Shown: positions 2,131 to 58,158, counted from the first letter of the stretch. The stretch: DNA of 64,000 nt from an uncultured Bacteroidales bacterium (GCA_963785325.1 CAWAVC010000025.1:202051-266050), one strand, 5' to 3'. A program made the numbers and translations. The notes: generated by a model from the letters alone, not told the origin.

Positions 2131-2733
2131 GTTGGGTGTTGGGTGTTGGGTGTTGGGAATCAGGCACTGGGTACTGGGCACTGGGTACTGGGTACTGGGT
2201 ACTAGGTACTGGGTACTAGGTACTGGGTACTGGGTACTGGGCACTGGGTACTAGGTACTGGGTACTGGGTACTGGGTACTGGGTACTGGGCACTGGGTAC
2301 TAGGTACTGGGTACTGGGTACTGGGTACTGGGTACTGGGTACTGGGTACTGGGTACTGGGTACTGGGTACTGGGTACTGGGTACTGGGTACTGGGTACTG
2401 GGTACTGGATACTGGGTACTGGGTACTGGATACTGGGTACTGGGTACTGGGTACTGGGTGCTGGGTACTGGGTACTGGGTACTGGGTGCTGGGTACTGGG
2501 TACTGGGTGCTGGGTACTGGGTACTGGGTACTGGGTGCTGGGTACTGGGTGCTGGGTACTGGGTACTGGGTACTGGGTACTAGGTACTGGGTACTGGGTG
2601 CTGGGTACTGGGTACTGGGTGCTGGGTACTGGGTACTGGGTACTGGGTGCTGGGTACTGGGTACTAGGTACTGGGTACTGGGTACTGGGTACTGGCTACT
2701 GGGTGCTGGGTACTAGGAACTGGATACTGGATA
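2131..2733 (+). repeat. heptamer tandem array, about 85 units of GGGTACT (variants GGGCACT, AGGTACT, GGGTGCT, GGATACT; begins with 3x GTTGGGT)
   Basis: Direct reading. The array starts 6 nt after the stop of the preceding ORF. It is open in all six frames, which produces the artefactual ORFs at 2486-2753. Confidence 0.97.
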
Positions 2734-15280: not shown

Positions 15281-16114
15281 TTGAAACGGTATCAGCCAAT
15301 ACAATTAGTATTCATTTTATTAGGAGCGCTTGTCCTATTATTTATTCTTGCACCCTTGTTGGGGATGTTTTTAAAAACCAGTCCTCAAAGTCTATTTGAA
15401 ACTGCAAAAGACGAGGAAGTTACAAACAGTATCTGGCTAACTATATGGATCTCTGTTGTATCCACATCATTATTTGCATTGGCTGCCATTCCGCTCTCTT
15501 ATCTACTGGCGAGAAAGAAATTTCCACTTAAAAAGCTGATAACGGGCATTATCGATCTTCCGGTTGTAATTCCTCATTCTGCTGCCGGGATCGCTATCCT
15601 GGGATTTGTTTCCAGGGATACTATCCTTGGCAAAATGGGTTCGGCCATAGGGCTGAATTTTGTAGGGAATCCGGCGGGGATAGCTGTTGCCATGGCATTT
15701 GTGAGCATCCCCTACCTCATAAATTCTGCACGTGACGGTTTTGCCGGCGTTCCTGAGCGTACTGAAAAGGCAGCACTTACATTGGGCGCTACACCAGCCC
15801 GTGTTTTCTTCACCATTTCGCTGCCACTTGCCTGGAGAAATGTTGTTTCAGGCCTGATCCTTATGTTTGCCCGTGGAATGAGTGAATTCGGCGCTGTAAT
15901 TGTAGTTGCTTATCACCCCATGATAACGCCTGTACTGATCTATGAGCGTTTCGGTGCTTTCGGGCTGAAGTACGCACGGCCGGTTTCGGTTTTATTCATC
16001 CTGATCTCACTTACGTTGTTTATTTTACTGAGATGGCTGGCGAGAGAAGAGGACGGAGGACGGAGAACGGAAGACAGAGGACGGAGGGTTGAGAAGGGTG
16101 AAATAGAGAAATGA
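15281..16114 (+). CDS. ABC transporter permease (ModB/WtpB type); the 3' end runs through a GGACGGA heptamer array
   Basis: Six-TM profile and an EAA-like loop ARDGFAGVPERTEKAALTLGA. TTG start. The tail EEDGGRRTEDRGRR is encoded by 5 heptamer units at 16047-16098. Confidence 0.8.
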   Translation: MKRYQPIQLVFILLGALVLLFILAPLLGMFLKTSPQSLFETAKDEEVTNSIWLTIWISVVSTSLFALAAIPLSYLLARKKFPLKKLITGIIDLPVVIPHSAAGIAILGFVSRDTILGKMGSAIGLNFVGNPAGIAVAMAFVSIPYLINSARDGFAGVPERTEKAALTLGATPARVFFTISLPLAWRNVVSGLILMFARGMSEFGAVIVVAYHPMITPVLIYERFGAFGLKYARPVSVLFILISLTLFILLRWLAREEDGGRRTEDRGRRVEKGEIEK

Positions 16115-16127: not shown

Positions 16128-17180
16128 ATGTTAGAGGTTAGGAATATTTCAAAGCGATTCCCGGATTTCTGTTTGAGGAACGTTTCTTTCTCGGTTGAAG
16201 AGGGAGATTATTTTATTCTGCTGGGGGAATCGGGGGCAGGTAAATCCATGTTGTTGGAAACTATTGCCGGACTGGTTCATCCGGAGAGCGGATCGATTTT
16301 ATTGGAAGGCAACGATATTACGCATCAAAAGATCCATGACCGGAAGATTGGGTTGGTATTCCAGGACTATGCAGTTTTCCCGCACATGACTGTTTACGAG
16401 AACATTGCATTTTCCCATCACGGGCAAAAATTAACCCGCAAAGAAAAAAAAGAATGCGTTTATCAGATTGCAGAGCAACTAAGTATCTTGGGACTTCTTG
16501 CCAGACGGCCTTCTACTCTATCGGGCGGCGAACTGCAAAGGATTGCATTAGCGAGGACGCTGATCCAACAACCGCGGGTATTGTTGCTTGATGAACCGCT
16601 GGCTTCACTCGACAGTCGTATTAAATCTGAACTTCGAAGTCAGTTAAGGAAGATCCACCGTCAAGGACAGACCATTCTTCATGTGACCCACGACTATGAA
16701 GAAGCCCTATCACTAGGAAACAGGATTGCCGTGATCAATAATGGATCAATCGTACAGGAAGGTACACCGGATGAGGTGTTCAAAACTCCGAGATCTGAGT
16801 TTGTAGCGCATTTTACTGGAGCCGGTAATTTTTTCAAAGCCTGGTTGACGGGAGAAAACAATAACAGCATTGCTCTTGCAGAGAATGTACTTCCTGTCAG
16901 GCTGCTTCCTCCTGAGGCCGGACCTGAAGGTTTTATCCTGATCAGGAGTGAAGATATCTTTCTTTCAAATGAATCTTTTGATTCCAGCGCCACAAATAAT
17001 TTCGAAGGAACTGTAACAGAGATCATTCCCGGAATCAGGGGAACCGAAGTAGTGGTTAATACCGGGGTCATCTTTCATGCGCTGATCACTGCTGAATCAC
17101 TGGTTCGTCTTGAACTCACAGAAGGCAAAAAGATATGGCTTCATTTCAAGGCGACGGCGGTAAGATTCATTCCGGGTTAG
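16128..17180 (+). CDS. ABC transporter ATP-binding protein with a C-terminal TOBE-like domain (ModC/WtpC type)
   Basis: Walker A GESGAGKS, signature LSGGELQR, Walker B LLLDEP, plus a roughly 110-aa C-terminal beta domain. Confidence 0.85.
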   Translation: MLEVRNISKRFPDFCLRNVSFSVEEGDYFILLGESGAGKSMLLETIAGLVHPESGSILLEGNDITHQKIHDRKIGLVFQDYAVFPHMTVYENIAFSHHGQKLTRKEKKECVYQIAEQLSILGLLARRPSTLSGGELQRIALARTLIQQPRVLLLDEPLASLDSRIKSELRSQLRKIHRQGQTILHVTHDYEEALSLGNRIAVINNGSIVQEGTPDEVFKTPRSEFVAHFTGAGNFFKAWLTGENNNSIALAENVLPVRLLPPEAGPEGFILIRSEDIFLSNESFDSSATNNFEGTVTEIIPGIRGTEVVVNTGVIFHALITAESLVRLELTEGKKIWLHFKATAVRFIPG

Positions 17181-17197
17181 TCGTATCTTTGCAGATT

Positions 17198-17797
17198 GGG
17201 TACTGGGTACTGGGTTCTGGGTTCTGGGTACTGGGTTCTGGGTACTGGGTTCTGGGTTCTGGGTTCTGGGTACTGGGTACTGGGTACTGGGTACTGGGTT
17301 CTGGGTTCTGGGTTCTGGGTTCTGGGTACTGGGTACTGGGTACTGGGTACTGGGTTCTGGGTACTGGGTTCTGGGTACTGGGTTCTGGGTACTGGGTTCT
17401 GGGTACTGGGTTCTGGGTACTGGGTTCTGGGTACTGGGTTCTGGGTACTGGGTTCTGGGTACTGGGTTCTGGGTACTGGGTTCTGGGTACTGGGTTCTGG
17501 GTACTGGGTTCTGGGTTCTGGGTTCTGGGTTCTGGGTACTGGGTACTGGGTACTGGGTACTGGGTACTGGGTTCTGGGTACTGGGTTCTGGGTACTGGGT
17601 ACTGGGTACTGGGTTCTGGGTTCTGGGTACTGGGTACTGGGTTCTGGGTACTGGGTTCTGGGTACTGGGTTCTGGGTACTGGGTTCTGGGTACTGGGTTC
17701 TGGGTTCTGGGTTCTGGGTACTGGGTACTGGGTACTGGGTTCTGGGTACTGGGTTCTGGGTACTGGGTTCTAGGTACTGGGTACGGGGTACGGGGTA
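17198..17797 (+). repeat. heptamer array, about 85 units, binary mix of GGGTACT and GGGTTCT
   Basis: Direct reading. Long stretches alternate strictly (14-bp period) and others form blocks of 4+4. The array is open in six frames, which produces the artefactual ORFs at 17135-17803. Confidence 0.97.
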
Positions 17798-17818
17798 ATT
17801 CATAATTTATAATTAACC

Positions 17819-18991
17819 ATGATATTGTTTGAGGAGGCTTACCGGATTGTGATGGATCATGTTACCGTTTTTCCAACGGAACGGGTCAACATGATGGATT
17901 GTCCGGGCCGTATTCTGGCAGAGGATATCTATTCGGATACTGATATGCCCCCTTTCAACAAATCGGCAGTTGACGGATTTGCCTGCAAGATTGCTGATCT
18001 TGGCCGCGAGCTTGAAGTAATTGAGACTATTCCGGCAGGTAAAATACCTGAGTTCAGGGTTACTGAAGGAAAATGTTCAAGAATTATGACCGGTGCTACA
18101 CTTCCTGAAGGATCTGATTGTGTGGTTATGGTTGAAGATACACAAATTCTGGATAATGGAATGATGCGATCGAATGGAAAGCCCGGCTCGCCGAACGTCT
18201 GTTACCAAGGTGAAGATATTAAGGCAGGCGACGTGGTCCTCCAGAAAGGAACACTTATAAAGCCTCAACACATTGCAGTCCTTGCTTCAACAGGAGCTGT
18301 CACTCCGAAAGTATCGAAACAGCTTCACGTCGGAATACTCTCAACCGGAGATGAGCTGGTAGAACCTGAACATCTCCCCTCTCCTTCCAAAATAAGAAAT
18401 ACAAACGCATACCAACTTATCGCTCAGGTCACCAACACAGGAGCAATTCCACAGTATGGGGGAATTGCTTCAGATACTGAGATCTCCTTATCGGCGATGC
18501 TTTCTGATTCGCTTGACCGGAATGATATTGTTCTCCTCACCGGGGGTGTTTCGATGGGTGATTTTGACTATGTTCCCAAGGTGATAGAAAACATGAATAT
18601 CAAGATTCTTTTTAAAAGTGTTGCCATCCAACCCGGGAAACCCACAGTTTTCGGGAAACGCGGGGACCAGTTTATTTTTGGATTGCCAGGGAATCCGGTT
18701 TCCTCATTTGTGCTTTACGAAGTTCTTGTAAAACCTTTCCTGCTAAGGACGATGGGATGCCAGGAAGAACCATTAATTATCGCGCTGCCTTTAGGAATTC
18801 CTTTTAAAAGGAAAAAATCTTCACGAAAATTGCTTATCCCGGTAAGAATTGAGAACGGGTTGGTTTTTCCGGTTGAATATCATGGTTCGGCCCACATCAA
18901 TGCATATTCTGAAGCTAAAGGCATGATTGCCATTGATATCGGGAAAACGGAATTGGTAAAAGGAGAAATGACAGATGTTCGATTCCTATAA
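17819..18991 (+). CDS. moeA: molybdopterin molybdenum/tungsten transferase MoeA
   Basis: MoeA domain order. STGDELV, LLTGGVSMGDFDY and GLPGNPVSS motifs. Confidence 0.85.
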   Translation: MILFEEAYRIVMDHVTVFPTERVNMMDCPGRILAEDIYSDTDMPPFNKSAVDGFACKIADLGRELEVIETIPAGKIPEFRVTEGKCSRIMTGATLPEGSDCVVMVEDTQILDNGMMRSNGKPGSPNVCYQGEDIKAGDVVLQKGTLIKPQHIAVLASTGAVTPKVSKQLHVGILSTGDELVEPEHLPSPSKIRNTNAYQLIAQVTNTGAIPQYGGIASDTEISLSAMLSDSLDRNDIVLLTGGVSMGDFDYVPKVIENMNIKILFKSVAIQPGKPTVFGKRGDQFIFGLPGNPVSSFVLYEVLVKPFLLRTMGCQEEPLIIALPLGIPFKRKKSSRKLLIPVRIENGLVFPVEYHGSAHINAYSEAKGMIAIDIGKTELVKGEMTDVRFL

Positions 18992-19804: not shown

Positions 19805-19876
19805 AGGTACTGGGTACTAGGTACTAGGTACTGGGTACTAGGTACTGGGTACTGGGTACAGGGTACTGGATACTGG
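19805..19876 (+). repeat. heptamer array GGGTACT/AGGTACT
   Basis: Direct reading, between moaA and moaC. Confidence 0.9.
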
Positions 19877-20512: not shown

Positions 20513-21434
20513 GAAAGAGTTAAAAGTTATTTCGGTCAATGTGTCTGAGACTAAGGGGACGATAAAGCACCCTGTTGAGTCAATTCATTTGACTGATATG
20601 GGGGTGGAGCATGATGCTCATTCGGGAGCCTGGAACAGGCAGGTGAGTTTGCTTGGGATTGAAAGCATCCGGAAGTATGAAAAAGTAACAAGCAGGAAAG
20701 TATCTCACGGTGAATTTGCTGAAAATATTACGACGGAGGGATTTGATCTTTGGAAAATGAACCCCCTAGATAGGTTCACCGTTGGGGATGCCGAACTTGA
20801 AGTGACCCAGATCGGTAAAGAATGTCATGGGACTTCGTGCGCAATTTTTAAGGAAACCGGAGATTGTATAATGCCTAAAGAAGGGATTTTCTGCCGTGTA
20901 ATCCGGCCGGGAGTGATTCGACCGAGTGATGTACTCGAATATCATCCGAAAGTTTTTTTAATCCGGATCATTACTCTCAGTGACCGTGCCAGTCGCGGTG
21001 AATATGAGGACAAGTCGGGTCCTCTAATCAAAGAACTCCTCATGGAATTTTTTACCAGTCACCATTTACAATTCACAATTCACAATTCACTAATCCCTGA
21101 TGATCCTGATCAACTTAGAGACTTTATGAACCGGGCAAAGCAGGATAAAACTGATTTTGTTTTCACTACCGGGGGTACAGGAATCGGTACTAAAGATCTC
21201 ACTCCGGAAGTTGTTAAACCTTTGCTGGATAAGGAAATCCCGGGTATTATGGAGTTGATCCGCACCAAGTATGGGGCAGAAAAACCGAATGCTCTTGTCA
21301 GCCGGAGTATAGCAGGTGTCATGAGGGAAAGTCTTGTTTTCACGTTACCAGGTAGTGTGAAGGCTGTAAATGAATACATGACCGAAATCTTACCCACCAT
21401 CAATCACCTGGTATTTCATGCTTCATGGCATTGA
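20511..21434 (+). CDS. MOSC domain fused to a MogA/MoaB-type molybdopterin adenylyltransferase domain
   Basis: N-terminal half has a MOSC-like beta barrel (ENITTEG...GDAELEVTQIGKECH). C-terminal half has ITLSDRASRGEYEDKSGP...TTGGTGIGTKDLTPE. An in-frame 3x ACAATTC array lies at 21068-21090. Confidence 0.75.
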   Translation: MKELKVISVNVSETKGTIKHPVESIHLTDMGVEHDAHSGAWNRQVSLLGIESIRKYEKVTSRKVSHGEFAENITTEGFDLWKMNPLDRFTVGDAELEVTQIGKECHGTSCAIFKETGDCIMPKEGIFCRVIRPGVIRPSDVLEYHPKVFLIRIITLSDRASRGEYEDKSGPLIKELLMEFFTSHHLQFTIHNSLIPDDPDQLRDFMNRAKQDKTDFVFTTGGTGIGTKDLTPEVVKPLLDKEIPGIMELIRTKYGAEKPNALVSRSIAGVMRESLVFTLPGSVKAVNEYMTEILPTINHLVFHASWH

Positions 21435-31017: not shown

Positions 31018-31290
31018 ATGGGTACTGGGTACTGGGTTCTGGGTTCTGGGTTCTGGGTACTGGGTTCTGGGTACTGGGTTCTGGGTTCTGGGTTCTGGGT
31101 TCTGGGTTCTGGGTTCTGGGTTCTGGGTTCTGGGTACTGGGTTCTGGGTTCTGGGTTCTGGGCACTGGGCACTGGGCAAAAAAGAAATGGCAAAATGGCA
31201 AAAATAGTGAATGGTGAGAGGTGAATGGTGAATAGTGAGTAGTGAGTAGTGAGTAGTGAATGGTGAGTAGTGAAAGGTGGGGGGGGTGAA
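30999..31290 (+). repeat. mosaic array: GGTGAGA x2, GGGTWCT x about 20, GGGCACT, AAATGGC, then GGTGAAT/AGTGAGT
   Basis: Direct reading. Confidence 0.95.
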
Positions 31291-36727: not shown

Positions 36728-37215
36728 GGGGTACTGGGTACTAGGCACTGGGTACTGGGTACTGGGTACTGGGTACTGGGTACTAGGTACTAGGCAACTG
36801 GGTACTAGGTACTGGGTACTGGGTACTAGGCACTGGGTACTGGGTACTGGGTACTAGGCAACTGGGTACTAGGTACTGGGTACTGGGTACTGGGTACTGG
36901 GTACTGGGTACTGGGTACTAGGCAACTGGGTACTAGGCACTGGGTACTAGGCAACTGGGTACTAGGCACTGGGTACTGGGTACTAGGTACTAGGCACTGG
37001 GTACTGGGTACTAGGTACTAGGCACTGGGTACTGGGTACTAGGCAACTGGGTACTAGGCACTGGGTACTGGGTACTAGGCAACTGGGTACTGGGTACTAG
37101 GTACTGGGTACTAGGCACTGGGTACTGGGTACTGGGTACTGGGTACTAGGCACTGGGTACTGGGTACTAGGTACTGGGTACTATGCACTGGGTACTAGGC
37201 AACTGGGTACTGGGA
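36728..37215 (+). repeat. heptamer array, about 68 units: GGGTACT, AGGTACT, AGGCACT and the 8-mer AGGCAACT
   Basis: Direct reading. This array has its own private variant set. Its 3' edge supplies the complement of the stop codon of the minus-strand gene. Confidence 0.97.
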
Positions 37216-38230: not shown

Positions 38231-38616
38231 TGGTTCTGGGTATTGGGTACTGGGTTCTGGGTACTGGGTTCTGGGTTCTGGGTTCTGGGTACTGGGTACT
38301 GGGTATTGGGTACTGGGTACTGGGTACTGGGTTCTGGGTACTGGGTACTGGGTTCTGGGTACTGGGTTTTGGGTACTGGGTACTGGGTACTGGGTACTGG
38401 GTACTAGGTACTGGGTACTGGGTTCTGGGTTCTGGGTTCTGGGTTCTGGGTACTGGGCTCTGGGTACTGGGTTCTGGGTTCTGGGTTCTGGGTACTAGGT
38501 ACTGGGTACTGGGTACTGGGTACTGGGTTCTGGGTTCTGGGTTCTGGGTTCTGGGTACTGGGTTTTGGGTACTGGGTACTGGACTTTGCCTAGTACCCAG
38601 TACTTAGTACCTAGTG
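38231..38616 (+). repeat. heptamer array GGGTTCT/GGGTACT/GGGTATT/GGGTTTT, ending in a short inverted segment (38590-38616)
   Basis: Direct reading. The array fills the whole gap between the nifJ stop and the start codon of the DHOD-like gene. The terminal inverted part pairs with the adjacent units (about a 14-bp stem). Confidence 0.97.
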
Positions 38617-42294: not shown

Positions 42295-44560
42295 CTAGAA
42301 CCTGAATCCAACTATGGTGACCCCCGCTCCACCGTGCTCAAGTTCCTCATCCCCGAATTTCTTAACCTCCTTAACACTTGCAAGAATAATCCCTCGTGAC
42401 CTGTCGGAGGACTCCATTTCCTTTACCGTGCAGGATCCTGACTTCGGGAATGTTCAGGAGAATGGCGTCATCAATGTACTTCTGCAATAAGGCGTGGGCT
42501 TCGTCGGCCCGTTTCCCTCTCAAATCCAGTGTGAGCTCAAAATGAAGAAGCTTCCTCTGAAGATCGTCATAAAACGACTGATAGGGTCCGCGGGTAGTGG
42601 TGACCGCCGACTGTTTCGGGATCAGTGGTACAAACTTTTTCCCCTTTTGATCCTTTTTATCTTCTTTAGGAGCATCCTGTTCAATCCTGGCTTTTAGTTC
42701 CTGGATTTCCTGTCTCACTTCTTTTGTCCGGTTTTTATCTGCCTGGCTCTCCCTGATCTCTTTAATGGTCTTTTCAATGAGGCGGTTTGATTCATTCAAT
42801 ATATTAAGGGCTTCCTCCTTCGCCTTCCGGAGGATTTCTTTTTGTGAGATTTCCAGTTCTTCTTTCAGTCTGGTATATTTGGTGATCATCTCATTCAGAA
42901 ACTCATCTGCCACTTTAATTTCTGTGGATTTCTGTATCAGTTCTGTCTTTTCAGCTTCCAGGTTTTGGAGTTCCCGGTCGAAATCAAGCTGACTGGTCCC
43001 GGTCTTACCGGCAGCAGCCTTAAGCACCTTTGATGGAAATCCGATCTGACGTGCAATCTCAAAAGCAAATGAACTTCCGGGTTTGCCAATCTTTAACAGA
43101 TACAGCGGCTTCATTTTTACGGTGTCATATAGCATGGCACCATTAGCAATCCCGGGGGTCTTCCCGGCCAGAAGTTTAAGGTTTGAATAATGGGTGGTGA
43201 CCAGCCCGAATGCGTTTTTACGGTTCATCTCCTCAAGACTGGCTTCGGCTATAGGACCACCCAGGGCGGGATCGGTACCGGTTCCGAATTCATCGATCAG
43301 GAAAAGAGAATTTTCATCCAGGTGTTCAAGGAAAAATTTCAGGTTCAGCAACTTTGAAGTATAGGTGCTGAGGTCATTTTCGAGAGATTGTTCATCACCG
43401 ATATCGATGAAGATATTCCTGAAAACGCCAAAGACAGAATCTTCCTTTGAAGAAGGCAGCATCCCGCATTGAAACATATACTGTAACAATCCTGCTGTTT
43501 TGAGACAAACCGACTTACCGCCGGCATTCGGGCCTGAGATGATCAGAATCCTGTTCTCAGTATCCAGCTCGATGGAGAGTGGCACGACCTTTTTTTTCTG
43601 TCGCTGATGAGCAATGTACAGGAGAGGGTGAACTGCTTCTCTCCAATGAATAAGTGGCTTTTCTGAAAGAGTAGCAGGCAGTATTCCGTTGATCCGGATT
43701 GCCATCATGGCCTTGGCACGGATAAAGTCTATGGTTCCCAGGAAGTTGTATGCACGGATCAGTTCCCCGCAGCTTGGCCTGAGGCTATCGGTAAAGTCAG
43801 TCAGGATGTGGATAATCTCTCTGCGTTCAGCATAATCTAATTCACGAATCTCGTTATTGGTTTCAAGAACATCTGCAGGCTCAAGGTAAACGGTTTGCCC
43901 CGTAGCTGATTCGTCATGAACAAATCCCTGTAGTTTTCTTTTATGAGTACTTAATATTGGGATGACGAGTCTTCCGTCGCGCAAGGTCAATTCTGCATTT
44001 TCAGGAGTCCAGCCTGAATGCCTGGCCAGTTTCAGGTTCTGGGCAATCTTTTTTTCCACTGTCGCCAGCTTCGATCTTTTTTCCTTCCTGATCTTCTTCA
44101 AAGCTGCCGATGCCTCGTCCCTGACCTGCGATTTTTCGTCGATGATCCTGTCTATTCCCCTGATCAACTCCTTGTCGATGCTTATCTCTCCGCAGAGTAA
44201 GGAAAGATAAGGAAAATCATCCTCCGGATGCTTCCGGAAGAAATCAATGATCTGTGAGATGGAAGAGAGCGAAAGTTTCAGCAAGGATAGATTTTCAGGC
44301 TCGATAAATGTTCCTTCGATCCTTATCCTGAGTAGTTCAGAGGTCAGGTCATAATAATCCTGAGAAGGAAAATTTTCTTCCGATAAAAGGATGCGGCGCA
44401 ATTCCTCTGTCTGTCCCAGGAGCTGCCTGATCTCAGAAAGATCATCAGAAAACCCCATTTCCTCTGCATGGATTTTACCGGGACCGATACAGAATTCTTT
44501 CACAAGTTCCCGTATAGCATCAAATCCAATTTTCGATTCGAAATCAGAAGGAAAAACCAC
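42295..44560 (-). pseudogene. mutS2: endonuclease MutS2 with a frameshifted Smr-domain tail (or a sequencing error)
   Basis: Walker A GPNAGGKS and Smr motif ILHGKGNGVLRQ. After ...TRDY the conserved tail LASVKEVKKFGDEELEHGGAGVTIVGFRF continues in another frame down to a TAG inside a heptamer unit. The junction is near 42380-42392. Confidence 0.8.
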
Positions 44561-44590
44561 GATTAAAGTTTTGTGTAAAGGTACTATTTT

Positions 44591-44707
44591 ACTAGGTACT
44601 GGGTACTAGGTACTGGGTACTAGGTTCTGGGCACTGGGTACTGGGTGCTCTGGGTACTGGGTACTCTAGGTACTGGGTACTGGGTACTGGGTGCTGGGTA
44701 CTGGGTT
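44591..44707 (+). repeat. heptamer array GGGTACT/AGGTACT/GGGTGCT (5' arm of cassette D)
   Basis: Direct reading. Confidence 0.95.
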
Positions 44708-44765
44708 ATTAAATAAAAAATTCGTATTACTTTTTTGATTTTAGCCGATTAAGTTAATAAAAACC

Positions 44766-45140
44766 ATGAGCTATAAAAATCTTGAAATCTGGAAACTATC
44801 CAATGAACTGGTAAAAGAAATTCATCTGATGACAATAAATAAGCTACCTGGTTTCGAATTGTATGAAACAGGAAGCCAAATAAGGCGATCTAGTAAATCT
44901 GTGAAATCAAACATTGTTGAAGGCTATGGCAGACGAATATATAAACAAGAATATGTTCATTTTCTGATTATTGCAATTGCATCAAATGACGAAACGGTTG
45001 ATCATTTGGAAACGTTGTACATTACAGGTTCTTTAAAAGATGAGGTGTTATATCTTTCACTCACGTCAAAATATGAAAAACTCGGAAAAATGATTAATTC
45101 ATATATTGAAGCTGTAAAAAATGATTACAAAAAAAGATAA
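44766..45140 (+). CDS. four-helix-bundle protein (23S rRNA intervening-sequence protein / Avd-like family), divergent copy D
   Basis: LEIWKLSNELVKEIH...SQIRRSSKSVKSNIVEGYGR...FLIIAIASNDE has the family signature (W..a..l, Q..RAa.Si..NIaEG, a.gS..E). Confidence 0.8.
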   Translation: MSYKNLEIWKLSNELVKEIHLMTINKLPGFELYETGSQIRRSSKSVKSNIVEGYGRRIYKQEYVHFLIIAIASNDETVDHLETLYITGSLKDEVLYLSLTSKYEKLGKMINSYIEAVKNDYKKR

Positions 45141-45160: not shown

Positions 45161-45246
45161 AGCACCCAATACCCAGTACCTAGAGTACCCAGTACCCAGT
45201 ACCTAGTACCCAGAGTACCCAGTACCCAGAGCACCCAGTACCTAAC
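45161..45246 (-). repeat. inverted heptamer array (AGTACCC on +), 3' arm of cassette D
   Basis: AGTACCCAGTACCTAGTACCC is the perfect complement of GGGTACTAGGTACTGGGTACT in the 5' arm. Confidence 0.95.
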
Positions 45247-45306: not shown

Positions 45307-46853
45307 ATGAGTTTACGTCAAAAAAGAAATGACCTTAAAAAAAGAATGCAGGAAGCATTCAAAGGAGGTGGCGAGAAGGCTACCGAGAAACAAAAGGCAT
45401 CCGGGAAGATGACCGCCCGTGAGCGGATCGTCGAATTGCTCGATGCCGATTCGTTTCATGAGTACGATCTTTTTGTCAAGCATGCAGGGGTGGATTTCGA
45501 CATGGACAAAAAATATCTTCCGGGCGATGGGGTTATCACCGGCACCGGATCTATCGATTCACATCCTGTTTGTGTTTTCGCACAGGACTTCACCGTAGCG
45601 GGAGGATCTTTGGGTTATATGCATGCCAAGAAGATCGGCAAGATCATGGATCAGGCGATGAAGATGAAAGTGCCGCTCATCGGGATCAACGATTCCGGGG
45701 GCGCCCGTATCCAGGAAGGAGTAAATTCACTGGCCGGTTATGGCGAGATCTTTTACCGTAACACTCAGGCCTCCGGCGTCATCCCACAGATCTCGGTAAT
45801 CCTTGGTCCCTGTGCCGGCGGAGCAGTATACTCACCGGCCCTGACTGATTTTGTTTTTGTGGTGGACAAGATCTCGAAGATGTTCATCACCGGGCCCGAA
45901 GTGATCAAGACTGTTCTCGGCGAAGAGATCTCCATGGAAGATCTTGGAGGCGCACGGGTTCATGCTGAGATCACAGGAAATGCCCATTTCTTCGCAGAGA
46001 GTGAAATAGAATGTTTCGAACAGATCAAGAGACTGGTCAGCTTTATTCCCTGGAACAACGAAAAAAGAGCCGATACCTTTCCGAGTAAAGCCCCGAAATC
46101 AAGGCAGTACAAGATCGACCAGATCTTCCCGTCGATCAAATGCAGGCCTATGATGTCAGGGATATCATAAAAGCTATCTGCGACGACTCAGATTTCTTTG
46201 AAGTTCATGAACACTGGGCAGCCAATATCGTGGTCGGCTTTGCAAGGCTCGATGGACAGACCGTAGGGTTTGTCGCCAACCAGCCCATGGTGCTTGCGGG
46301 AGTGCTCGATGTCGATTCATCAGATAAAGCCGCTCGTTTTATCAGGTTCTGCGATGCATTCAATATTCCACTTGTGACCTTTGTCGACCTTCCCGGTTAC
46401 CTTCCAGGCGTTGACCAGGAATATGCCGGTGTTATCCGTCACGGTGCCAAAGTACTTTATGCTTATTCCGAAGCTACCGTTCCAAAGATGACTGTGATTC
46501 TCCGTAAGGCTTATGGAGGAGGATATATCGCTATGTGTTCCCATCACCTTAAAGCTGATTTTGTGTTTGCCTGGCCTACCGCAGAAATTGCAGTCATGGG
46601 ACCTGAGGGAGCAGCCAATATCATCTTCAGGAATGAAATAAAAGCTGCGGAGAATCCTGAAGAGACCCGTAAAAAACTGATCGAGGATTATCGTAGTAAA
46701 TTTGCAAACCCCTATGTAGCTGCAGCTTATGGATATGTTGATGCAGTAATTTTACCGTCGGAAACCCGTGGTTTTCTTATCCATTCACTCAGCATAGCTG
46801 CCAACAAGGGTGAGGCAAGGCCAAAGAAGAAACATGGAATTCCTCCATTTTAA
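45307..46853 (+). pseudogene. acyl-CoA carboxylase carboxyltransferase (PccB / methylmalonyl-CoA decarboxylase alpha / transcarboxylase 12S type), split by a 1-nt indel (or a sequencing error)
   Basis: GKMTARERI, DFTVAGGSLG and SVILGPCAGGAVYSPA in ORF1. YDVRDII, VGFVANQP and AYGGGYIAM in ORF2. The frames overlap at 46089-46170, with a CCCC run at 46091-46094. Confidence 0.85.
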
Positions 46854-46968
46854 ATGGTGAATGGTGAAAAAGGTACTGGGTACTAGGTACTGGGTGCTGG
46901 GTACTGGGTGCTGGGTACTGGGTACTAGGTACTGGGTGCTGGGTTCTGGGTACTGGGTACTGGGTTTT
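46854..46968 (+). repeat. mosaic array GGTGAAT x2, then GGGTACT/GGGTGCT/AGGTACT
   Basis: Direct reading. Starts at the stop codon. Confidence 0.95.
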
Positions 46969-51685: not shown

Positions 51686-52245
51686 TGCGTGACGCGGAAA
51701 AGAGTGAGAGGTGAGAGGTGAGAGGTGAGAGGTGAGAGGTGAGAGGTGAGAGGTGAGAGGTGAGAGGTGAGTGGTGAGAGGTGAGAGGTGAGAAGTGAGA
51801 AGTGAGTGGTGAGTGGTGAGAGGTGAGTGGTGAGAAGTGAGTGGTGAGTGGTGAGAGGTGAGAGGTGAGAGGTGAGAAGTGAGAGGTGAGAGGTGAGAGG
51901 TGAGAAGTGAGTGGTGAGTGGTGAGTGGTGAGAGGTGAGAGGTGAGAGGTGAGAGGTGAGAGGTGAGAGGTGAGAGGTGAGAGGTGAGAGGTGAGAGGTG
52001 AGAGGTGAGAGGTGAGAGGTGAGAGGTGAGTGGTGAGAGGTGAGAGGTGAGAGGTGAGAAGTGAGTGGTGAGAGGTGAGAGGTGAGAGGTGAGAGGTGAG
52101 AGGTGAGTGGTGAGTGGTGAGAAGTGAGAGGTGAGAAGTGAGAGGTGAGATGTGAGATGTGAAATGTGAGATGTGAAAGGTGAGAAGTGAATGGAAGATG
52201 GAGGATGGAGGATGGAGGATGGAAAATGAAGAATTAAGAATGAAA
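51679..52245 (+). repeat. heptamer array, about 75 units of GGTGAGA/GGTGAGT/AGTGAGA, then GATGTGA and GGATGGA, GAATGAA
   Basis: Direct reading. The minus strand is open in three frames, which produces the artefactual ORF at 51654-52433. Confidence 0.97.
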
Positions 52246-53015: not shown

Positions 53016-53535
53016 ATGGAGAACTTGCAGCATTGGTATGCCGTTTACACGAAACCCAGGAGTGAAAAGAAATTAGCCGAACGGTTGAGCGATCAGGGTA
53101 TCGAGGCCTATCTTCCCATGCGCAAAACCCTGAAACAATGGTCGGACCGGAAGAAGATGGTTAGTGAGCCGCTGATTTCTTCTTATGTTTTCGTTAATAT
53201 TTTCCAGAAAGATTATCTTGAAGTACTCAAGAAATGCCCGAAGCGCGTGAGGTATATGTGGTTCTGCGGCAAGCCTGCTGTTATTCCTTCAAACCGAGAT
53301 CCAGTCATTGAAGCTTATCATAAAACCAGGACCTTGATATCCAACGTGTTTCGTCATCTTTTCCCACAAGGTACCCGTGTGCAGGTGGTCTCGGTCATTT
53401 GAAGGGACTTACGGCGAACTGCTGAACCATGCCGGGAAACATAGAGTCATGATCAGGCTCGATAATCTGGATAAGGCGCTACTGCTGACGATTTCACCAC
53501 GGCTGTTGGAGGAAGTGAATGTGAGTAGTGAATAG
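53016..53535 (+). pseudogene. UpxY-family (NusG-like) transcription antiterminator, disrupted by at least one and probably three frameshifts
   Basis: The NGN domain WYAVYTKPRSEKKLAERL...SYVFV is intact. EIQSLKLIIKPG, FPQGTRVQVVS and FEGTYGELLNHAGKHRVMIRL (KOW region) lie in alternating frames between 53294 and 53400. Confidence 0.7.
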
Positions 53536-53592
53536 TGAGAGGTGAGAGGTGAGAGGTGAGAGGTGAGAGGTGAGAGGTGAGAGGTGAGAAGG
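53515..53592 (+). repeat. heptamer array AGTGAAT, then GGTGAGA x8
   Basis: Direct reading. Confidence 0.95.
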
Positions 53593-53816
53593 TAATTACT
53601 CATTTTTGTGTGCTAAGTTTTGGTATTTTCAGAGATGGGACTGGACAGGGCGAAGCTGTAAATGGTGAAAAGTGAGAGGTGAGAGGTGAGTGAGGGTGTG
53701 GGTGAGTGGAAAATGGTTAGTAGTGAATGTGGTCATGGAGAGTGGAGAATGAAATTTCAATAAAAAATCAAGATTATTTTGTATTTTTGAAAACATGTTA
53801 CAATAAATCACCTGGT

Positions 53817-54020
53817 ATGACAACCATTGTTATTAAGCCAAAAACAAAAACAGAAAGGGATTTTATTACCCGTCTGTTAAAAAAAATGAATATTGAAGTT
53901 GACCTGATTGAAGAACCTGAACCTAATTATAAAACCCGAAAAGCAATGGAAGAGGTTTATCATAAAAGGGGCACCAAGGTCAAGGATTCCAAAGAACTCT
54001 TTAAAGAGCTTGGAATCTGA
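53817..54020 (+). CDS. DUF2683-like antitoxin candidate
   Basis: MTTIVIKPKTKTERDFITRLLKKMNIEVDLIEE... The stop overlaps the start of the toxin remnant (ATGA). Confidence 0.45.
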   Translation: MTTIVIKPKTKTERDFITRLLKKMNIEVDLIEEPEPNYKTRKAMEEVYHKRGTKVKDSKELFKELGI

Positions 54021-54139
54021 TGTTTCAACTGGTCTACACCAATAGATTCAAAAAAGACATAAAACTTCTTCAGAAAAGAGGCTTTGACCTGAACTTGCTA
54101 AAAATCGTCATCTCCATTCTGGAAGAAAATAGTGAGTAG
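54020..54139 (+). pseudogene. YafQ/RelE-type toxin remnant (first ~37 codons only), cut off by the repeat arm of cassette A
   Basis: MFQLVYTNRFKKDIKLLQKRGFDLNLLKIVISILEEN matches the N-terminus of YafQ-type toxins (about 90 aa expected). The ORF then runs into AGTGAGT units and a TAG. Confidence 0.55.
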
Positions 54140-54161
54140 TGAGTGGTGAATAGTGAATGGT
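54131..54161 (+). repeat. 5' arm of cassette A (AGTGAGT, GGTGAAT, AGTGAAT)
   Basis: GTGGTGAATAGTGAATGGT at 54143-54161 is the perfect reverse complement of 54579-54597. Confidence 0.95.
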
Positions 54162-54177
54162 AAAAAAATGAATTTTC

Positions 54178-54524
54178 ATGGATCATAAAGATCTGGAGGT
54201 TTGGAAAGAATCAATGCTTCTTGCAAAGGAGGTATATTTTTTGACAAAAGGGTTTCCCAAAGAAGAAATATATGGGATTACCTCCCAAATCAGAAGAGCA
54301 TCGGTATCAGTTCCATCAAATATCGCTGAAGGCGCTGCAAGAAGTAGCGATAAAGAATTCATTCAATTTCTTTATATTTCCCTTGGTTCTCTCTCTGAAT
54401 TGGAAACTCAATTATTGTTATCCCGGGATTTGGAATTCATGAGGAATCCAGATATCTTACCAAAAATCGAATCGACAAAAAGAAAATTTTAGGTCTGATC
54501 AAATATCTGAAAAACAAAATTTAG
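54178..54524 (+). pseudogene. four-helix-bundle protein (23S rRNA IVS protein / Avd-like), copy A, with a 1-nt indel in an A-run near the 3' end (or a sequencing error)
   Basis: About 85% aa identity to copies B and C. After ...IESTK the tail KKILGLIKYLKNKI continues in another frame. The junction is at 54478-54490. Confidence 0.8.
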
Positions 54525-54548
54525 AAATAATGTAGTCGAATTCCCGCA

Positions 54549-54597
54549 CCCACACACACTACTAACTATTCACCTCTCACCATTCACTATTCACCAC
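54549..54597 (-). repeat. 3' arm of cassette A (inverted GGTGAAT/GGTGAGA units)
   Basis: See the 5' arm: 19-bp perfect complementarity. Confidence 0.95.
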
Positions 54598-55134
54598 TTG
54601 TTAGATACCCTTATCACAAGCAAGACGCGGATTAAGCTGCTGCTGAGGTTTTTCCTGAACAGCAACACTACTTCTTATCTGCGAAACCTGGAGACGGATT
54701 TCGACGAATCTACCAACTCCATCAGGATCGAGCTGAACAGGTTTGAGAAAGCCGGTTTGCTGGTTTCCGGGAAAGAACAGAACCGGAAGGTTTATAAGGC
54801 CAATACCAACCATCCCCTATTTCCCGATATCAACAATATCCTGAGGAAGTACATCGGGGTCGATCAGATCATCGATAAGGTGCTCGGACACCTGGGATCT
54901 GTAAATAAGGCATATATCACGGGTGATCTTGCGAGAGGAAAGGACGCCGACAGCATCAACCTCTACCTCATCGGCACTGAACTCGATCTCGACTACCTCA
55001 AACATCTCATAAAGAAGACTCAAACGCTGATACACCGCGGTATCAAGTATAAACTGCTGGACGAAGGGGAAGAAGCGGAATTTCTCAAAGAGAATCCAGA
55101 TGCATTTGTTATTTGGAAGGGGAATGGTGAATAG
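54598..55134 (+). CDS. winged-helix transcriptional regulator with a C-terminal nucleotidyltransferase-like domain
   Basis: MLDTLITSKTRIKLLLRFFLN...YLRNLE...IRIELNRFEKAGLL (ArsR-like wHTH). The TTG start directly abuts the repeat arm. Confidence 0.55.
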   Translation: MLDTLITSKTRIKLLLRFFLNSNTTSYLRNLETDFDESTNSIRIELNRFEKAGLLVSGKEQNRKVYKANTNHPLFPDINNILRKYIGVDQIIDKVLGHLGSVNKAYITGDLARGKDADSINLYLIGTELDLDYLKHLIKKTQTLIHRGIKYKLLDEGEEAEFLKENPDAFVIWKGNGE

Positions 55135-55238
55135 TGAATGGTGAGAGGTGAGAGGAGAAAAAGTGAGAGGTGAGAGGTGAGAGGAAAAAAAGTGAGAGGT
55201 GAGAGGTGAGAAGACGTGAGATGTGAGAAGTGAGAAGT
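55122..55238 (+). repeat. 5' arm of cassette B (GGTGAAT, then GGTGAGA blocks, GATGTGA, AGTGAGA)
   Basis: GTGAGAGGTGAGAGGTGAGA at 55192-55211 is complementary to part of 55628-55655. Confidence 0.95.
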
Positions 55239-55255
55239 AAAAAAAAAAGAATTTT

Positions 55256-55609
55256 ATGAATCATAAAGAGTTGGAGGTTTGGAAAGAGTCAATGATTCTT
55301 GCAAGGGAAGCTTACCTTTTGACTAAAGGTTTTCCTAAGGAAGAATTGTATGGAATTACTTCACAGATAAGAAGAGCATCGGTTTCTATACCATCAAATA
55401 TTGCAGAAGGTGCTGCACGAAGCAGTGATAAAGAATTCATTCAATTTCTATATATATCTCTGGGGTCACTCTCTGAACTTGAAACCCAATTCTTATTATC
55501 AAAAGATTTGAAATTTATTGAAAACCTTGAGGTTTTACATAAAATCGAATCGATAAAAATGAAACTTCTCGGCTTGATAAAATACCTGAAAAACAAAAAG
55601 AAAAAATAA
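55256..55609 (+). CDS. four-helix-bundle protein (23S rRNA IVS protein / Avd-like), copy B
   Basis: LEVWKESMILAREAY...SQIRRASVSIPSNIAEGAARSSDKEFIQFLYISLGSLSELETQ, 117 aa. Confidence 0.85.
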   Translation: MNHKELEVWKESMILAREAYLLTKGFPKEELYGITSQIRRASVSIPSNIAEGAARSSDKEFIQFLYISLGSLSELETQFLLSKDLKFIENLEVLHKIESIKMKLLGLIKYLKNKKKK

Positions 55610-55627
55610 CATCATACCTGTATTTAC

Positions 55628-55655
55628 ATCTCACCTCTCACCTCTCACCTCTCAC
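55628..55655 (-). repeat. 3' arm of cassette B (inverted GGTGAGA x4), followed by an AAACTTA array to 55710
   Basis: Direct reading. Confidence 0.95.
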
Positions 55656-55710
55656 AGCTTAACACTTAAAACTTAAAACTTAAAACTAATAACACTTAAA
55701 ACTAATACTT

Positions 55711-56413
55711 TTGAAAGCAGTAATTCTGGCGGGGGGTAAGGGAACGAGGTTGAAACCTTATACTACCGTTATTCCGAAGCCATTGGTGCCGGTTGGGGAG
55801 ACTTCGATTATCGAGATCCTGATCAGGCAACTTAAAAAGTCGGGAATTGAAGAGGTGGATGTGTGCCTGGGCCACTTTGCCGAAATCATCATGGCCTTCC
55901 TCGGAGATGGCAGCAAATGGGGAATAAAGATCAGGTATTCCGTTGAAACAAAGCTTATGGGGACAGTTGCTCCTCATTAAACTGCTCAGCGACCTGCCTG
56001 AGAATTTCCTGGTCATGAATGGCGATCTGCTGACAAATCTTGACTTTATGAATTTGTATGCTACCCATCTTAATAATGATTCATTGCTGACCGTTTCAAC
56101 GTATCAGCGGACGACAAAAATTGATTTTGGCGTTATCGAAACTGAAGGACAATCTGAGAAAGTTACCGGTTTTAAAGAAAAACCTGAATATAACTTCGAA
56201 GTCAGCATGGGGGTTTATGTGATGAACAGGAAGATCCTTGACTTTGTTCCCGATGACCAGCCTTTTGGGTTTGACGACCTGATGATCACACTGATTCAGA
56301 AGAAACAACCTATCTCAATCTACCGCTTCAATGGTTATTGGCTCGATATCGGGAGGCCGGATGATTATGAGAAGGCGAATGAGGATGTGGGAAAGGTGAG
56401 AGGTGAGAGGTGA
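55711..56413 (+). pseudogene. sugar-phosphate nucleotidyltransferase, split by a 1-nt indel (or a sequencing error)
   Basis: ILAGGKGTRLKPYT..IPKPLVPV in ORF1 and LVMNGDLLTN...WLDIGRPDDY in ORF2. The junction is at 55969-55977. TTG start. The stop lies inside a GGTGAGA unit. Confidence 0.8.
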
Positions 56414-56417
56414 GAAG
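56394..56417 (+). repeat. 5' arm of cassette C (GGTGAGA x3)
   Basis: Direct reading. Confidence 0.9.
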
Positions 56418-56434
56418 AAAAAAAATAAAAAAGT

Positions 56435-56788
56435 ATGAATCATAAAGATTTGGAAGTTTGGAAGGAATCGATGCTTCTTGCAAAGGAAGTATATCTTGTG
56501 ACAAAAGGTTTTCCTAAGGAAGAATTGTATGGAATTACTTCACAGATAAGAAGAGCATCGGTTTCTGTACCATCAAATATTGCAGAAGGCGCTGCACGAA
56601 GCAGTGATAAAGAGTTTATTCAATTTCTATATATCTCTCTTGGTTCCCTTTCTGAACTTGAAACCCAATTATTATTATCCCGGGATTTGAAATTTATTGA
56701 AAATCTGGATTTTTTACCAAAAATCGAATCGGTAAAAATGAAACTTATCGGCTTGATAAAATATCTTAAAAACAAAATGAAAAAATAA
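56435..56788 (+). CDS. four-helix-bundle protein (23S rRNA IVS protein / Avd-like), copy C
   Basis: 117 aa, about 90% identical to copy B. The nucleotide tract 56507-56566 is identical to 55328-55387. Confidence 0.85.
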   Translation: MNHKDLEVWKESMLLAKEVYLVTKGFPKEELYGITSQIRRASVSVPSNIAEGAARSSDKEFIQFLYISLGSLSELETQLLLSRDLKFIENLDFLPKIESVKMKLIGLIKYLKNKMKK

Positions 56789-56806
56789 CATCATAGTTGC
56801 ACTTAC

Positions 56807-56834
56807 ATCTCACCTCTCACTTCTCACTTCTCAC
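56807..56834 (-). repeat. 3' arm of cassette C (inverted GGTGAGA/AGTGAGA units)
   Basis: Direct reading. At least 13 bp is perfectly complementary to the 5' arm. Confidence 0.9.
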
Positions 56835-56844
56835 AATTTAAAAC

Positions 56845-57916
56845 TTGAAGATCGTAACGGTTATCGGGGCAAGGCCGCAGTTTATTAAGGCGGCGACTTA
56901 TGTCACGGTTACTTTGCATGTATCCTGATGTTGAAGAGATCCTCGTGCATACAGGGCAGCATTATGATCCGAATATGTCGGATATCTTTTTCGAGGAGCT
57001 GGATATTCCGCATCCTGATTTTAACCTGGAGGTCGGCTCAGGTTCTCACGCTGTTCAGACCGGTAAAATGCTCAGGGGTATAGAGACTATCCTTATGGAT
57101 AAAAAACCAGATTGGACACTGGTGTACGGTGATACAAATTCGACCCTTGCCGGTGCGCTTGCTTCCACGAAACTCAATATCCCCGTGGCTCATGTTGAGG
57201 CAGGGCTTCGATCCTTTAACCGGAAGATGCCTGAAGAGATCAACCGGATCGTGACAGACCATATTTCCGACCTCCTCTTCGCCCCTACCCCCACGGCTAT
57301 GGTCAACCTTGAAAAGGAAGGGCTGCTCGGATCAAGCTTCCAAACCGGAGATGTGATGTTCGATAGTACGCTATTTTACAAAGAGAAAATACTCAGGAAT
57401 CCTGACACGTATAAGACTAATGGACTTCCGGATAAATACCTGCTGGCTACGGTGCATCGTGCCGAAAATACCGATAACATCAATAACCTGAGAAACATTT
57501 TCAAGGCATTCTCTGAATCCCGGGAGACCATTGTGTTGCCCATCCATCCACGAACCCGGAAAAGCATCGCCAATATCATTCAGATTCCTGAAAATGTTCA
57601 CCTCATCGATCCCGTCGGATACCTTCAGATGCTTTATCTGACGATACATTCAGTCAAAGTCCTTACTGATTCAGGAGGCTTGCAGAAAGAGGCTTATTTT
57701 CTTGGTAAACAATGTATTACCCTGCGTACGGAAACGGAATGGCTGGAGACAGTTCACGATAATTGGAATATCGTTACAGGAACAGACCCGGATAAGATTC
57801 TGGGGGCTATACGGTCGGAAGTTCCTGATAAGCCTCAACATTCATCGTTTGGAGATGGACATGCGGCGGAGGCGATCGTTGAGAAGATAAAATGGGTACT
57901 GGGTACTGGGTACTAG
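56845..57916 (+). pseudogene. wecB: UDP-N-acetylglucosamine 2-epimerase with a frameshift after codon ~17 (or a sequencing error)
   Basis: (TTG)KIVTVIGARPQFIKAAT lies in one frame and SRLLCMYPDVEEILVHTGQHYDPNMS... in the next. There is one extra nt at 56896-56902 relative to the paralogous fragment at 62984. The tail WVLGTGY and the stop lie in a GGGTACT array. Confidence 0.8.
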
Positions 57917-58158
57917 GTACTGGGTACTGGGTACTGGGTACTAGGTACTGGGTACTGGGTACTGGGTACTGGGTACTAGGTACTGCAGACAAAGCGACGT
58001 GGTGAACTGGTGACAGAGTGATGTGGTGAACTGGTGAGAAGTGAATGGTGAGAGGTGAATAGTGAGTGGTGAATAGTGAGTGGTGAATAGTGAATGGTGA
58101 ATGGGAAAAAGTAATAAAGTGACAAAGTAACAAAGTAACAAAGTAACAGAGTAACAAA
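57894..58158 (+). repeat. mosaic array: GGGTACT x about 12, GGTGAACT/GGTGACAG, GGTGAAT/AGTGAGT, AAGTAACA octamers
   Basis: Direct reading. Confidence 0.95.

Follow-up and report, generated by a model that had tools for sequence, protein, structure and literature searches.

A hyper-expanded GGGTWCT heptamer array between modC-like and moeA genes of an uncultured Bacteroidales bacterium: a probable simple sequence repeat with incidental quadruplex potential

The block of tandem heptamers at positions 17198-17797 of a 64,000-nt stretch of DNA from an uncultured Bacteroidales bacterium (GCA_963785325.1, CAWAVC010000025.1:202051-266050; the whole stretch is referred to as the window) is probably a hyper-expanded heptanucleotide simple sequence repeat (SSR), which was recently expanded and whose potential for G-quadruplex (G4) folding is incidental. 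The block, referred to below as the modC-moeA array, is one of the G-rich heptameric repeats that occupy bacterial intergenic DNA and are known as SSRs, long SSRs (LSSRs) or short tandemly repeated repetitive (STRR) sequences. With 86 units, where the longest published array has 26, it is of record length for the described class, in a phylum where the class is uncharacterised. The value of the result for this array is mainly corrective, with sequence evidence against G4 folding as the cause of its existence. Such arrays also have practical effects: short-read assemblies are broken by them, long spurious open reading frames (ORFs) are created on both strands, real genes are extended or fused, and rearrangement junctions are marked.

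Structure of the array

The array is preceded by the stop codon of an ABC ATPase gene (modC-like) and followed by the moeA ATG; the features of this region are as follows.

16128..17180, + strand: ABC transporter ATPase with TOBE domain (modC-like; PF00005, 4e-38; PF03459, 1e-8), stop 17 nt upstream of the array
17181..17197, + strand: left flank TCGTATCTTTGCAGATT, conserved, present in 4/4 relatives
17198..17797, + strand: (GGGTWCT)86 array, whose G-rich strand is the sense strand for the flanking genes
17798..17818, + strand: right flank ATTCATAATTTATAATTAACC, conserved, AT-rich, directly before the moeA ATG and not intruded upon by the array
17819..18991, + strand: moeA (molybdopterin molybdotransferase)

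The array was composed of 82 perfect in-register units (43 GGGTACT and 39 GGGTTCT), across which no indels were found, and was ended by four variant units (AGGTACT, GGGTACG twice and GGGTAAT). Tandem Repeats Finder called it at 17197-17796 with a period of 14 (equal to two 7-mers), 43.4 copies, 92% matches and a score of 976, and the array recognised in an earlier sequence-only reading of this DNA is therefore real. The order of the two unit types was not random: 53 transitions were counted against 40.9 +/- 4.5 expected (P = 0.005), and the longest alternating GGGTACT/GGGTTCT run reached 24 units, where no run above 19 arose in 5,000 shuffles, which points to growth in 14-nt plus 7-nt steps.

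The same reading had held the repeat to be free of stop codons in all six frames. This was true of four frames of the array, and one stop was found in each of the other two; both were TAG from the AGGTACT variant, the sole source of stops inside the array, in agreement with the proposal that translation would end only at variant units. The 212-, 200- and 208-aa ORFs on both strands were likewise traced to the array, as had been supposed for the frames of about 200 aa. Of the 16,384 heptamers, 50.4% have no stop in any of the six frames when repeated in tandem, so the property is uninformative.

Orthologous spacers and origin of the array

The modC-moeA spacer was compared with that of four syntenic relatives (L119, L120, L124 and L125; MoeA identity 84-92%). 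Its length was 638 nt in the window and 40, 41, 90 and 99 nt in the relatives, and a GGGTWCT array was found at this site in none of the four, the spacers being empty or with short unrelated heptamer runs (GGTATTG.. and TGATAAG.. in L119 and L120). The array fits exactly between the left flank conserved across relatives, TCGTATCTTTGCA, which contains TAnnTTTG, and the AT-rich moeA leader, whose conserved sequence ATTCATAATTTATAATT abuts the ATG. Turnover at other sites was observed in two further relatives, L358 and L360, which are syntenic with 34-53 kb of the window: at one site the window has 490 nt where the relatives have 156 and 12 nt, and in the DHO_dh/PFOR spacer it has 386 nt where they have 231 and 131 nt and another unit, so that the orthologous array sites beyond moeA vary from 12 to 490 nt in length. 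No shared flank motif, target-site duplication or ends like those of transposable elements of the miniature inverted-repeat type (MITEs) were found at the junctions of 12 window arrays, and a mobile element or MITE was not supported, given the lack of common termini or duplication there.

Four exact tandem GGGTWCT units would be expected about 3e-4 times by chance in 596 Gb, on our own estimate with uniform composition, and at least 118 stretches were found; the proper null for a tandem repeat is slippage rather than random sequence. These stretches came from >15 phyla, with arrays mostly of 30-200 bp, and relatedness to the window outside the repeats was found in 0/118 of the genome loci bearing (GGGTWCT)4.

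The short orthologous spacers, conserved flanks, unit turnover, motif-less junctions and unit alternation together form a signature of slippage or unequal exchange. The array would have grown in the window lineage by steps of 7 and 14 nt, through slippage during replication or through unequal exchange, and may have persisted where spacers tolerate arrays as long as the last ~20 nt before the start codon remain free. It would be transcribed together with moeA, or as the moeA leader. In the RNA, GGGUACU units would pair mutually into a long imperfect hairpin, and in transiently single-stranded DNA, G4 folding would be possible and may itself promote slippage. The quadruplex potential would then be a physical by-product, arising from one unit sequence among many, and would not be what explains the array.

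Quadruplex potential and telomere likeness

The G3-N4 quadruplex layout attributed to the unit was borne out by the regular expression G3N1-7 x4, which gave 79 overlapping + strand starts inside the array. The usual G4Hunter threshold is 1.2-1.5. Over the array the mean G4Hunter value was 1.16, borderline and just below 1.2. The competing hairpin in single-stranded DNA was weak in the model (-5.1 kcal/mol per 140 nt). An oligonucleotide of the same G3N4 layout, (GGGAATC)3GGG, forms a K+-dependent G4 with T1/2 50.4 C, and the C strand of the GGGAATC heptamer has possible i-motif behaviour (PMC4692102).

Several observations weighed against G4 formation as the defining property of the arrays. 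Arrays without a G3 tract were equally large and frequent in the window (GTGAGAG, 527 bp; AAGAATG; AATAGTG; AAGCGGAC). The most variable unit position was the first G, with 38 G-to-A changes among 346 units of nine arrays, as compared with 0 changes at position 2, 5 at position 3, and 5 and 3 at the loop positions 6 and 7, respectively; in the 36.7-kb array, GGG was intact in only 45 of ~69 units. In a collection of viral contigs, (GGGTWCT)4 was present in 8 loci, as against 45 and 21 for GGTGWCT and GGTWGCT, respectively, which are composition-matched permuted units of broken G run sought in the same collection. The window arrays (~10 to 86 units) showed no preference for four units, the preference that is a key argument for G4 relevance in PMC4692102. 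The proposal that G-rich heptameric SSRs form quadruplexes was itself not new, having been published in 2015 (PMC4692102).

The array shares with the plant telomeric repeat TTTAGGG a 7-nt unit, a single G3 tract and G4-forming potential. Telomeres, however, terminate linear replicons, and their G strand runs 3' outward, whereas the window arrays are internal to a bacterial chromosome, between conserved genes and in either gene-relative orientation, and the telomere-like layout once suggested for them did not hold. In an unbiased metagenome sample of generic G3N4 x6 arrays, mostly eukaryote-type telomeres (GGGGATT) were recovered and GGGTWCT was recovered in 0/120. Metagenome contigs of 1-3 kb (L127, L129, L148, L151, L155, L159, L171, L197, L198 and others) carried inverted GGGGATT at both ends; these contigs resemble whole linear chromosomes of gene size, telomeres included, and our guess is that they come from ciliates in rumen metagenomes.

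Predicted folding of the array RNA

With G4 energies included, ViennaRNA predicted (GGGUACU)n as a slipped hairpin, at -55.3 kcal per 84 nt versus -8.4 per G4, so that three G4s would amount to about -25 kcal against -55 kcal for the hairpin over the same length; the hairpin follows from the self-complementarity of GGUACU. For the whole 600-nt array, a minimum free energy (MFE) of -310 kcal/mol was predicted, nearly all of it in hairpin, with ~2 G4s in place of the ~20 stacked quadruplexes that had been envisaged. A test of the slipped hairpin for compensatory variation within the arrays gave it no support, with 16 uncompensated T4-to-C changes and with the GGGTTCT units, which break the helix.

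Comparison with known heptamer repeats

G-rich heptameric SSRs of Xanthomonas (GGGAATC) and Nostoc (GGGGAYT) were described by Rehm et al. (2015; PMC4692102), by whom they were found between aligned ORFs, on the sense strand at <50 bp from the preceding stop, and variable in length between relatives, with inverted pairs, transcription and circular dichroism (CD) data for G4 and i-motif; no function was found. The window arrays resemble this class in the tandem 7-nt unit with a tract of at least three G, represented by the 82 perfect GGGTWCT units of the modC-moeA array, in the strong bias to spacers between mostly co-oriented ORFs, with the start of the array <50 bp from the preceding stop (17 nt in the case of modC), in the additional occurrence on the antisense strand just upstream of an ORF (as for the window arrays at 38232 and 44590), in the variation of length and sequence between close relatives, and in pairs of inverted orientation. 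They differ in the unit GGGTWCT and the phylum Bacteroidota, in lengths of 50-86 units against the published maximum, in lacking a four-unit preference and coexisting with equally large G3-less arrays, and in the self-complementarity of GGTACT, through which an RNA hairpin becomes a strong competitor.

STRRs were defined in heterocystous cyanobacteria, and the unit of STRR1 is said, after Mazel in 1990, to be CCCCAGT. Window arrays are likewise intergenic tandem heptamers, and their ACCCAGT unit is one base off that of STRR1; ACCCAGT arrays were found in Nostoc loci, and ACTGGGG, the STRR1 unit, alongside in the locus of a cyanobacterial metagenome-assembled genome (MAG). The window arrays, in contrast, are far longer and from another phylum. 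Membership in the cyanobacterial STRRs was rejected, the unit differing by one base and the host belonging to Bacteroidota.

TAACTGA heptamer repeats of Beggiatoaceae, Cyanobacteria and Bacteroidetes were reported by MacGregor (2015; PMC4679880); as far as Mrazek (2007) is cited in that work, no long SSR is commoner in prokaryotes than the heptamer, and polymerase slippage is given as the rationale. TAACTGA repeats are similarly intergenic and patchy across phyla, with up to 43 copies in some Bacteroidetes (PMC4679880), and they and the LSSRs share with the window arrays the mixture of heptamer types within a spacer and the orthologous sites of close relatives without repeats. The unit is different, and TAACTGA repeats stand mainly 1-50 nt upstream of start codons in sets of 2-6, whereas the window arrays start right after stop codons and are far longer.

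PF05635 cassettes bracketed by inverted heptamer arrays

Four PF05635 genes were found in the window, each of them bracketed by inverted heptamer arrays.

44590..44708, + strand: 5' arm, GGGTACT array
44766..45140, + strand: PF05635 (23S rRNA intervening sequence (IVS) protein / S23p / Avd-like four-helix bundle) gene, 124 aa, E 7e-26
45164..45242, + strand: 3' arm, ACCCAGT array, of which 59 nt are 95% complementary to 44637-44695
54178..54492, + strand: PF05635 gene, inverted AATAGTG-type arms 54128-54161 / 54558-54591
55256..55609, + strand: PF05635 gene, inverted GTGAGAG arms 55163-55188 / 55623-55648
56435..56788, + strand: PF05635 gene, inverted GTGAGAG arms 56388-56420 / 56803-56835
Cassettes outside the window: L026 1980-2570; L032 6411-6901; L360 17060-17500; L323-L357

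In the 44.6-kb cassette, irregular 9-nt units were mirrored in both arms, and a stem of ~75 bp enclosing the ORF was predicted by the RNA model. Every C-rich array on the + strand of the window (45164, 55624 and 56805) was the 3' arm of a PF05635 cassette. PF05635 proteins are Avd-like (PMC10053308), and the closest entry to the protein in PDB was 2GSC from Xanthomonas.

Among loci selected by array pattern, PF05635 genes adjoined an array in 8/8 and were bracketed in 6/8. For a sample chosen by protein homology alone (35 loci, ~27 distinct), with period-7 self-identity >=0.75 as the criterion, significant inverted period-7 arms were detected in 14 of the ~27 distinct loci. As a control, 6/1,324 random ORFs of the same array-rich sequences passed, of which three were PF05635 genes and one was an arm-sharing neighbour, giving a background rate of ~0.2% for the bracketing criterion in other ORFs. 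The cassette arms were built from more than 12 different units, their sequence being lineage-specific, and the G-rich arm was the 5' arm in 19/22 cassettes.

A related architecture without an ORF was found in the DHO_dh<-PFOR spacer, where a heptamer-array hairpin was present in three lineages.

Window 38232-38616, L358 3658-3888 and L360 6033-6163: DHO_dh<-PFOR hairpins

The units were GGGTWCT, GGGTDTT and GCTGGAT; with a different unit in each lineage, the architecture has been conserved while the sequence has turned over. At another site, between a GNAT acetyltransferase gene and a GTPase gene, the 527-bp GTGAGAG array of the window (51704-52228) was observed opposite a PF05635 cassette in L360 (17103-17468) and a 146-nt mixed heptamer run in L358 (18294-18439).

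In the Coxiella IVS, strain-variable heptamers (GACAGAT x2-3) lie upstream of the S23p ORF, and a 28-bp stem is cut by RNase III (PMC4990558). The 23S rRNA IVS of Coxiella and Leptospira (PMC4990558) resembles the window cassettes in its terminal inverted repeats, which form a stem enclosing a PF05635 ORF, whereas the window cassettes lie between protein genes and not in rRNA, with stems that are themselves heptamer arrays. Among the papers searched, none was found that states a general link between PF05635 and heptamer arrays.

It is possible, though unlikely, that bacterial heptamer arrays are not mere slippage debris but are tied to the S23p/Avd-like (PF05635) family. Stand-alone arrays such as that at 17198-17797 may be orphan or expanded arms, or landing sites, of a PF05635 system, in which a pentameric PF05635 protein may recognise 7-nt-periodic nucleic acid or the arrays may be stems of RNase III type. 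For the modC-moeA array the link is a hypothesis and was not adopted as its explanation: a PF05635 gene was present in only 3/118 array-selected loci, most arrays standing alone, and the array itself is not a cassette, with no ORF beyond the frames that it creates and no inverted partner nearby. The period-7 architecture, conserved around PF05635 genes in different lineages, connects two long-unexplained features, heptamer SSRs and multi-copy "23S IVS protein" genes, and the proposed tie between arrays and gene family, if true, would give the decades-old question of why heptamers are used a molecular handle.

Alternative explanations

It is scarcely conceivable that the array is a protein-coding repeat (with GYWVLGT or PSTQYPV periodic peptides) or has a telomere-type function of a chromosome end. 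The open frames of 200-212 aa on both strands and the match to TTTAGGG in length and G3 layout would suit these proposals; however, the 7-nt period passes through all three frames, such open frames arise from half of all heptamers, orthologous loci lack the block, and the array is internal with conserved genes at either side, whereas genuine telomeric G3N4 arrays in metagenomes occupy both contig ends in inverted orientation. An array made, or lengthened, by a long-read assembler is very unlikely. The 82 units are perfectly in register with the two types in structured order, ~10 arrays of the GGGTWCT-type unit lie at separate sites with clean unique junctions, the same units are present in at least 118 independent public assemblies, and short arrays occur at orthologous sites in relatives; on the side of an artefact are the apparent frameshifts that split window genes (45307-46170/46140-46853 and 55711-55980/55943-56413), as in error-prone long-read assemblies, and the frequent termination of public contigs within such arrays.

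Functional tandem G4 (and i-motif) arrays, by which DNA or RNA polymerases or ribosomes would be paused and the neighbouring genes regulated, are distinctly improbable. Although the canonical motif with its 79 matches, the weak DNA hairpin and the K+-dependent folding of (GGGAATC)3GGG, from a class that is transcribed and holds the same gene-relative positions (PMC4692102), are in favour of such a function, it is opposed by the borderline mean score, the equal abundance of G3-less arrays, the mutability of the first G (a third of the units of the 36.7-kb array lack GGG), the lack of a four-unit preference and of enrichment over broken-G-run permutations, and the preference of the RNA model for the hairpin; a regulatory role was also not found by Rehm et al. 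(PMC4692102). A structured-RNA element is rather unlikely as well. According to this proposal, the array would be an intercistronic or leader stem, acting as an RNase III processing site or as a messenger RNA stabiliser that uncouples moeA from the transporter genes, with a function shared by the inverted-array hairpins and the PF05635 cassette stems. The predicted MFE, the DHO_dh<-PFOR hairpin kept in three lineages with three different units, the cassette stems of 20-75 bp made from the same units with the G-rich arm mostly 5', and the RNase III cleavage of the equivalent Coxiella stem (PMC4990558) are consistent with it, but 39/82 units are GGGTTCT, which is not self-complementary and would place U.U mismatches mid-helix, the T4-to-C changes are without compensation, the array is without an inverted partner, and no such element is present at the site in the four relatives. 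Moreover, about 1/4-1/3 of heptamers contain a hexamer that is self-complementary when G.U pairs are allowed (own estimate), and the pairing could be chance.

The following points weigh against a hyper-expanded SSR of recent and neutral growth. The sequences of the relatives are metagenome contigs assembled from short reads, in which long arrays cause breaks, and absence is secure only where the spacer was read through. The 82 near-undecayed perfect units could be due to homogenisation or selection as well as to youth. The recurrence of identical units across >15 phyla is more than pure local slippage explains, and the hairpin architecture conserved in three lineages implies that some arrays are structurally constrained, so that "neutral" may be the wrong word here. 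The viral contigs used as a control are a sequence population other than bacterial chromosomes.

Other arrays in the window

The window had a GC content of 42.8%, and period-7 and period-8 arrays made up 7.3% of it and at least 27% of its intergenic DNA. Besides GGGTWCT, the units were ACTGGGT/CTGGGTT, GTGAGAG (the 527-bp array), AAGAATG, AATAGTG, AAGCGGAC and AAAGTCAC. Arrays of the GGGTWCT type had ~10, 13, 13, 17, 23, 50, 69, 86 and 86 units, and a further short one was located at 42262.

2131..2733, + strand: GGGTACT array, ~86 units, headed by GTTGGGT x4, with the stop of a + gene 6 nt upstream
19806..19876, + strand: short GGGTACT/AGGTACT array between moaA and moaC
31019..31180, + strand: GGGTTCT array, 23 units, 2 nt after the SpoU methylase gene stop
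36729..37214, + strand: GGGTACT/AGGCACT array, ~69 units (intact GGG in only 45), filling the S49 peptidase/DHO_dh convergent spacer
38232..38582, + strand: GGGTWCT array, 50 units, in the spacer of the - strand genes DHO_dh and PFOR, with the G-rich strand antisense
38583..38616, + strand: inverted (ACCCAGT-type) tail of the 38232 array, forming the ORF-less hairpin with 38232-38582
46872..46968, + strand: GGGTACT/GGGTGCT array after the carboxyltransferase stop codon
51704..52228, + strand: GTGAGAG array, 527 bp, without G3 tract; the relative L360 has a PF05635 cassette at the site
57890..57985, + strand: GGGTACT array into which the epimerase ORF 56900-57916 reads

The sister arrays reported earlier at 2131-2733, 36728-37215 and 38231-38616 were thus recovered with ~86, ~69 and 50 units, respectively. 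Typically the G-rich strand of a window array was the sense strand, and the array began 1-30 nt downstream of a stop codon; those at 2131, 19806, 31019, 36729 and 46872 began 2-30 nt after stops on the sense strand, and those at 38232 and 44590 were on the antisense strand, 1-30 nt upstream of - strand genes. Most genes and arrays of the window were on the + strand, and the skew was +0.068 for + genes and -0.018 for - genes. The UDP-GlcNAc 2-epimerase ORF (56900-57916) ended at the TAG of an AGGTACT variant unit within the 57890 array.

The mutS2 gene (42371-44560) was on the - strand in the window and co-oriented with the carboxyltransferase gene in L358 and L360; the segment 42262-44708 is an inversion, and at both of its junctions GGGTRCT arrays and a duplicated AAAGGTAC-ATTT box were observed. 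A nested tandem repeat was observed at 59332-60616, with about nine units of 124-132 nt, each consisting of a variable (AAGCGGAC)n run, GTGAGAA-type heptamers and a conserved AT-rich block.

Gene neighbourhood and host

The genes around the modC-moeA array are Bacteroidota molybdate-uptake and molybdenum cofactor (Moco) biosynthesis genes of housekeeping character, in the order substrate-binding protein (SBP), hyp358, permease, ATPase/TOBE, moeA, moaA, moaC and MOSC-MoCF. This order was conserved in the four relatives, in support of the earlier statement that arrays sit inside apparent operons. The named homologues of MoeA and MutS2 belonged to Bacteroidetes/Bacteroidales MAGs, which assigned the host lineage to Bacteroidota, and type IX secretion system (T9SS) tail domains adjoined the Moco cluster in L125. 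An Rfam scan of the window returned two tRNAs only, with no Moco riboswitch and nothing at the arrays.

The left flank holds TATCTTTG at 17184, a match to the -7 promoter box TAnnTTTG of Bacteroidetes (PMC6847099, PMC7366714). The box (17184-17191) follows directly after the modC stop and is conserved in the spacers of L119, L120, L124 and L125, which suggests, from the sequence, that moeA may have its own promoter there, in which case the whole array would be a ~620-nt 5' untranslated region (UTR). A phase-variable (contingency) SSR was rejected: the candidate -7 box precedes the array, the leader and ATG that follow it are intact, a 7-nt unit in a 5' UTR alters neither the reading frame nor the promoter spacing, and the Moco genes concerned are housekeeping genes.

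In the same gene string, the permease ORF runs into a GAGGACG array (16049-16114) and is 13 aa longer than in the relatives. The coding linker of MOSC/MoCF also contains a heptamer array, TTCACAA in the window (21051-21095) and ACCATTC x7 in the relatives, which suggests that readthrough of a stop-free intergenic array fused the MOSC and MoCF genes.

L119 8764-8812, L124 7424-7470 and L125 13148-13186: MOSC-MoCF linker arrays in relatives

Two genes of the window were each split into two overlapping ORFs, namely the carboxyltransferase gene (45307-46853), which is a single gene of 502-515 aa in relatives, and the NTP-transferase gene (55711-56413); these frameshifts represent either real pseudogenes or assembly indel errors. 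A polysaccharide-type locus at 53016-62650, headed by a NusG-like (UpxY-type) gene, was interrupted by three of the PF05635 cassettes, and also by an MNT/HEPN pair (61849-62650), a RhuM-family gene (60690-61544) and an ATPase gene (58173-59291).

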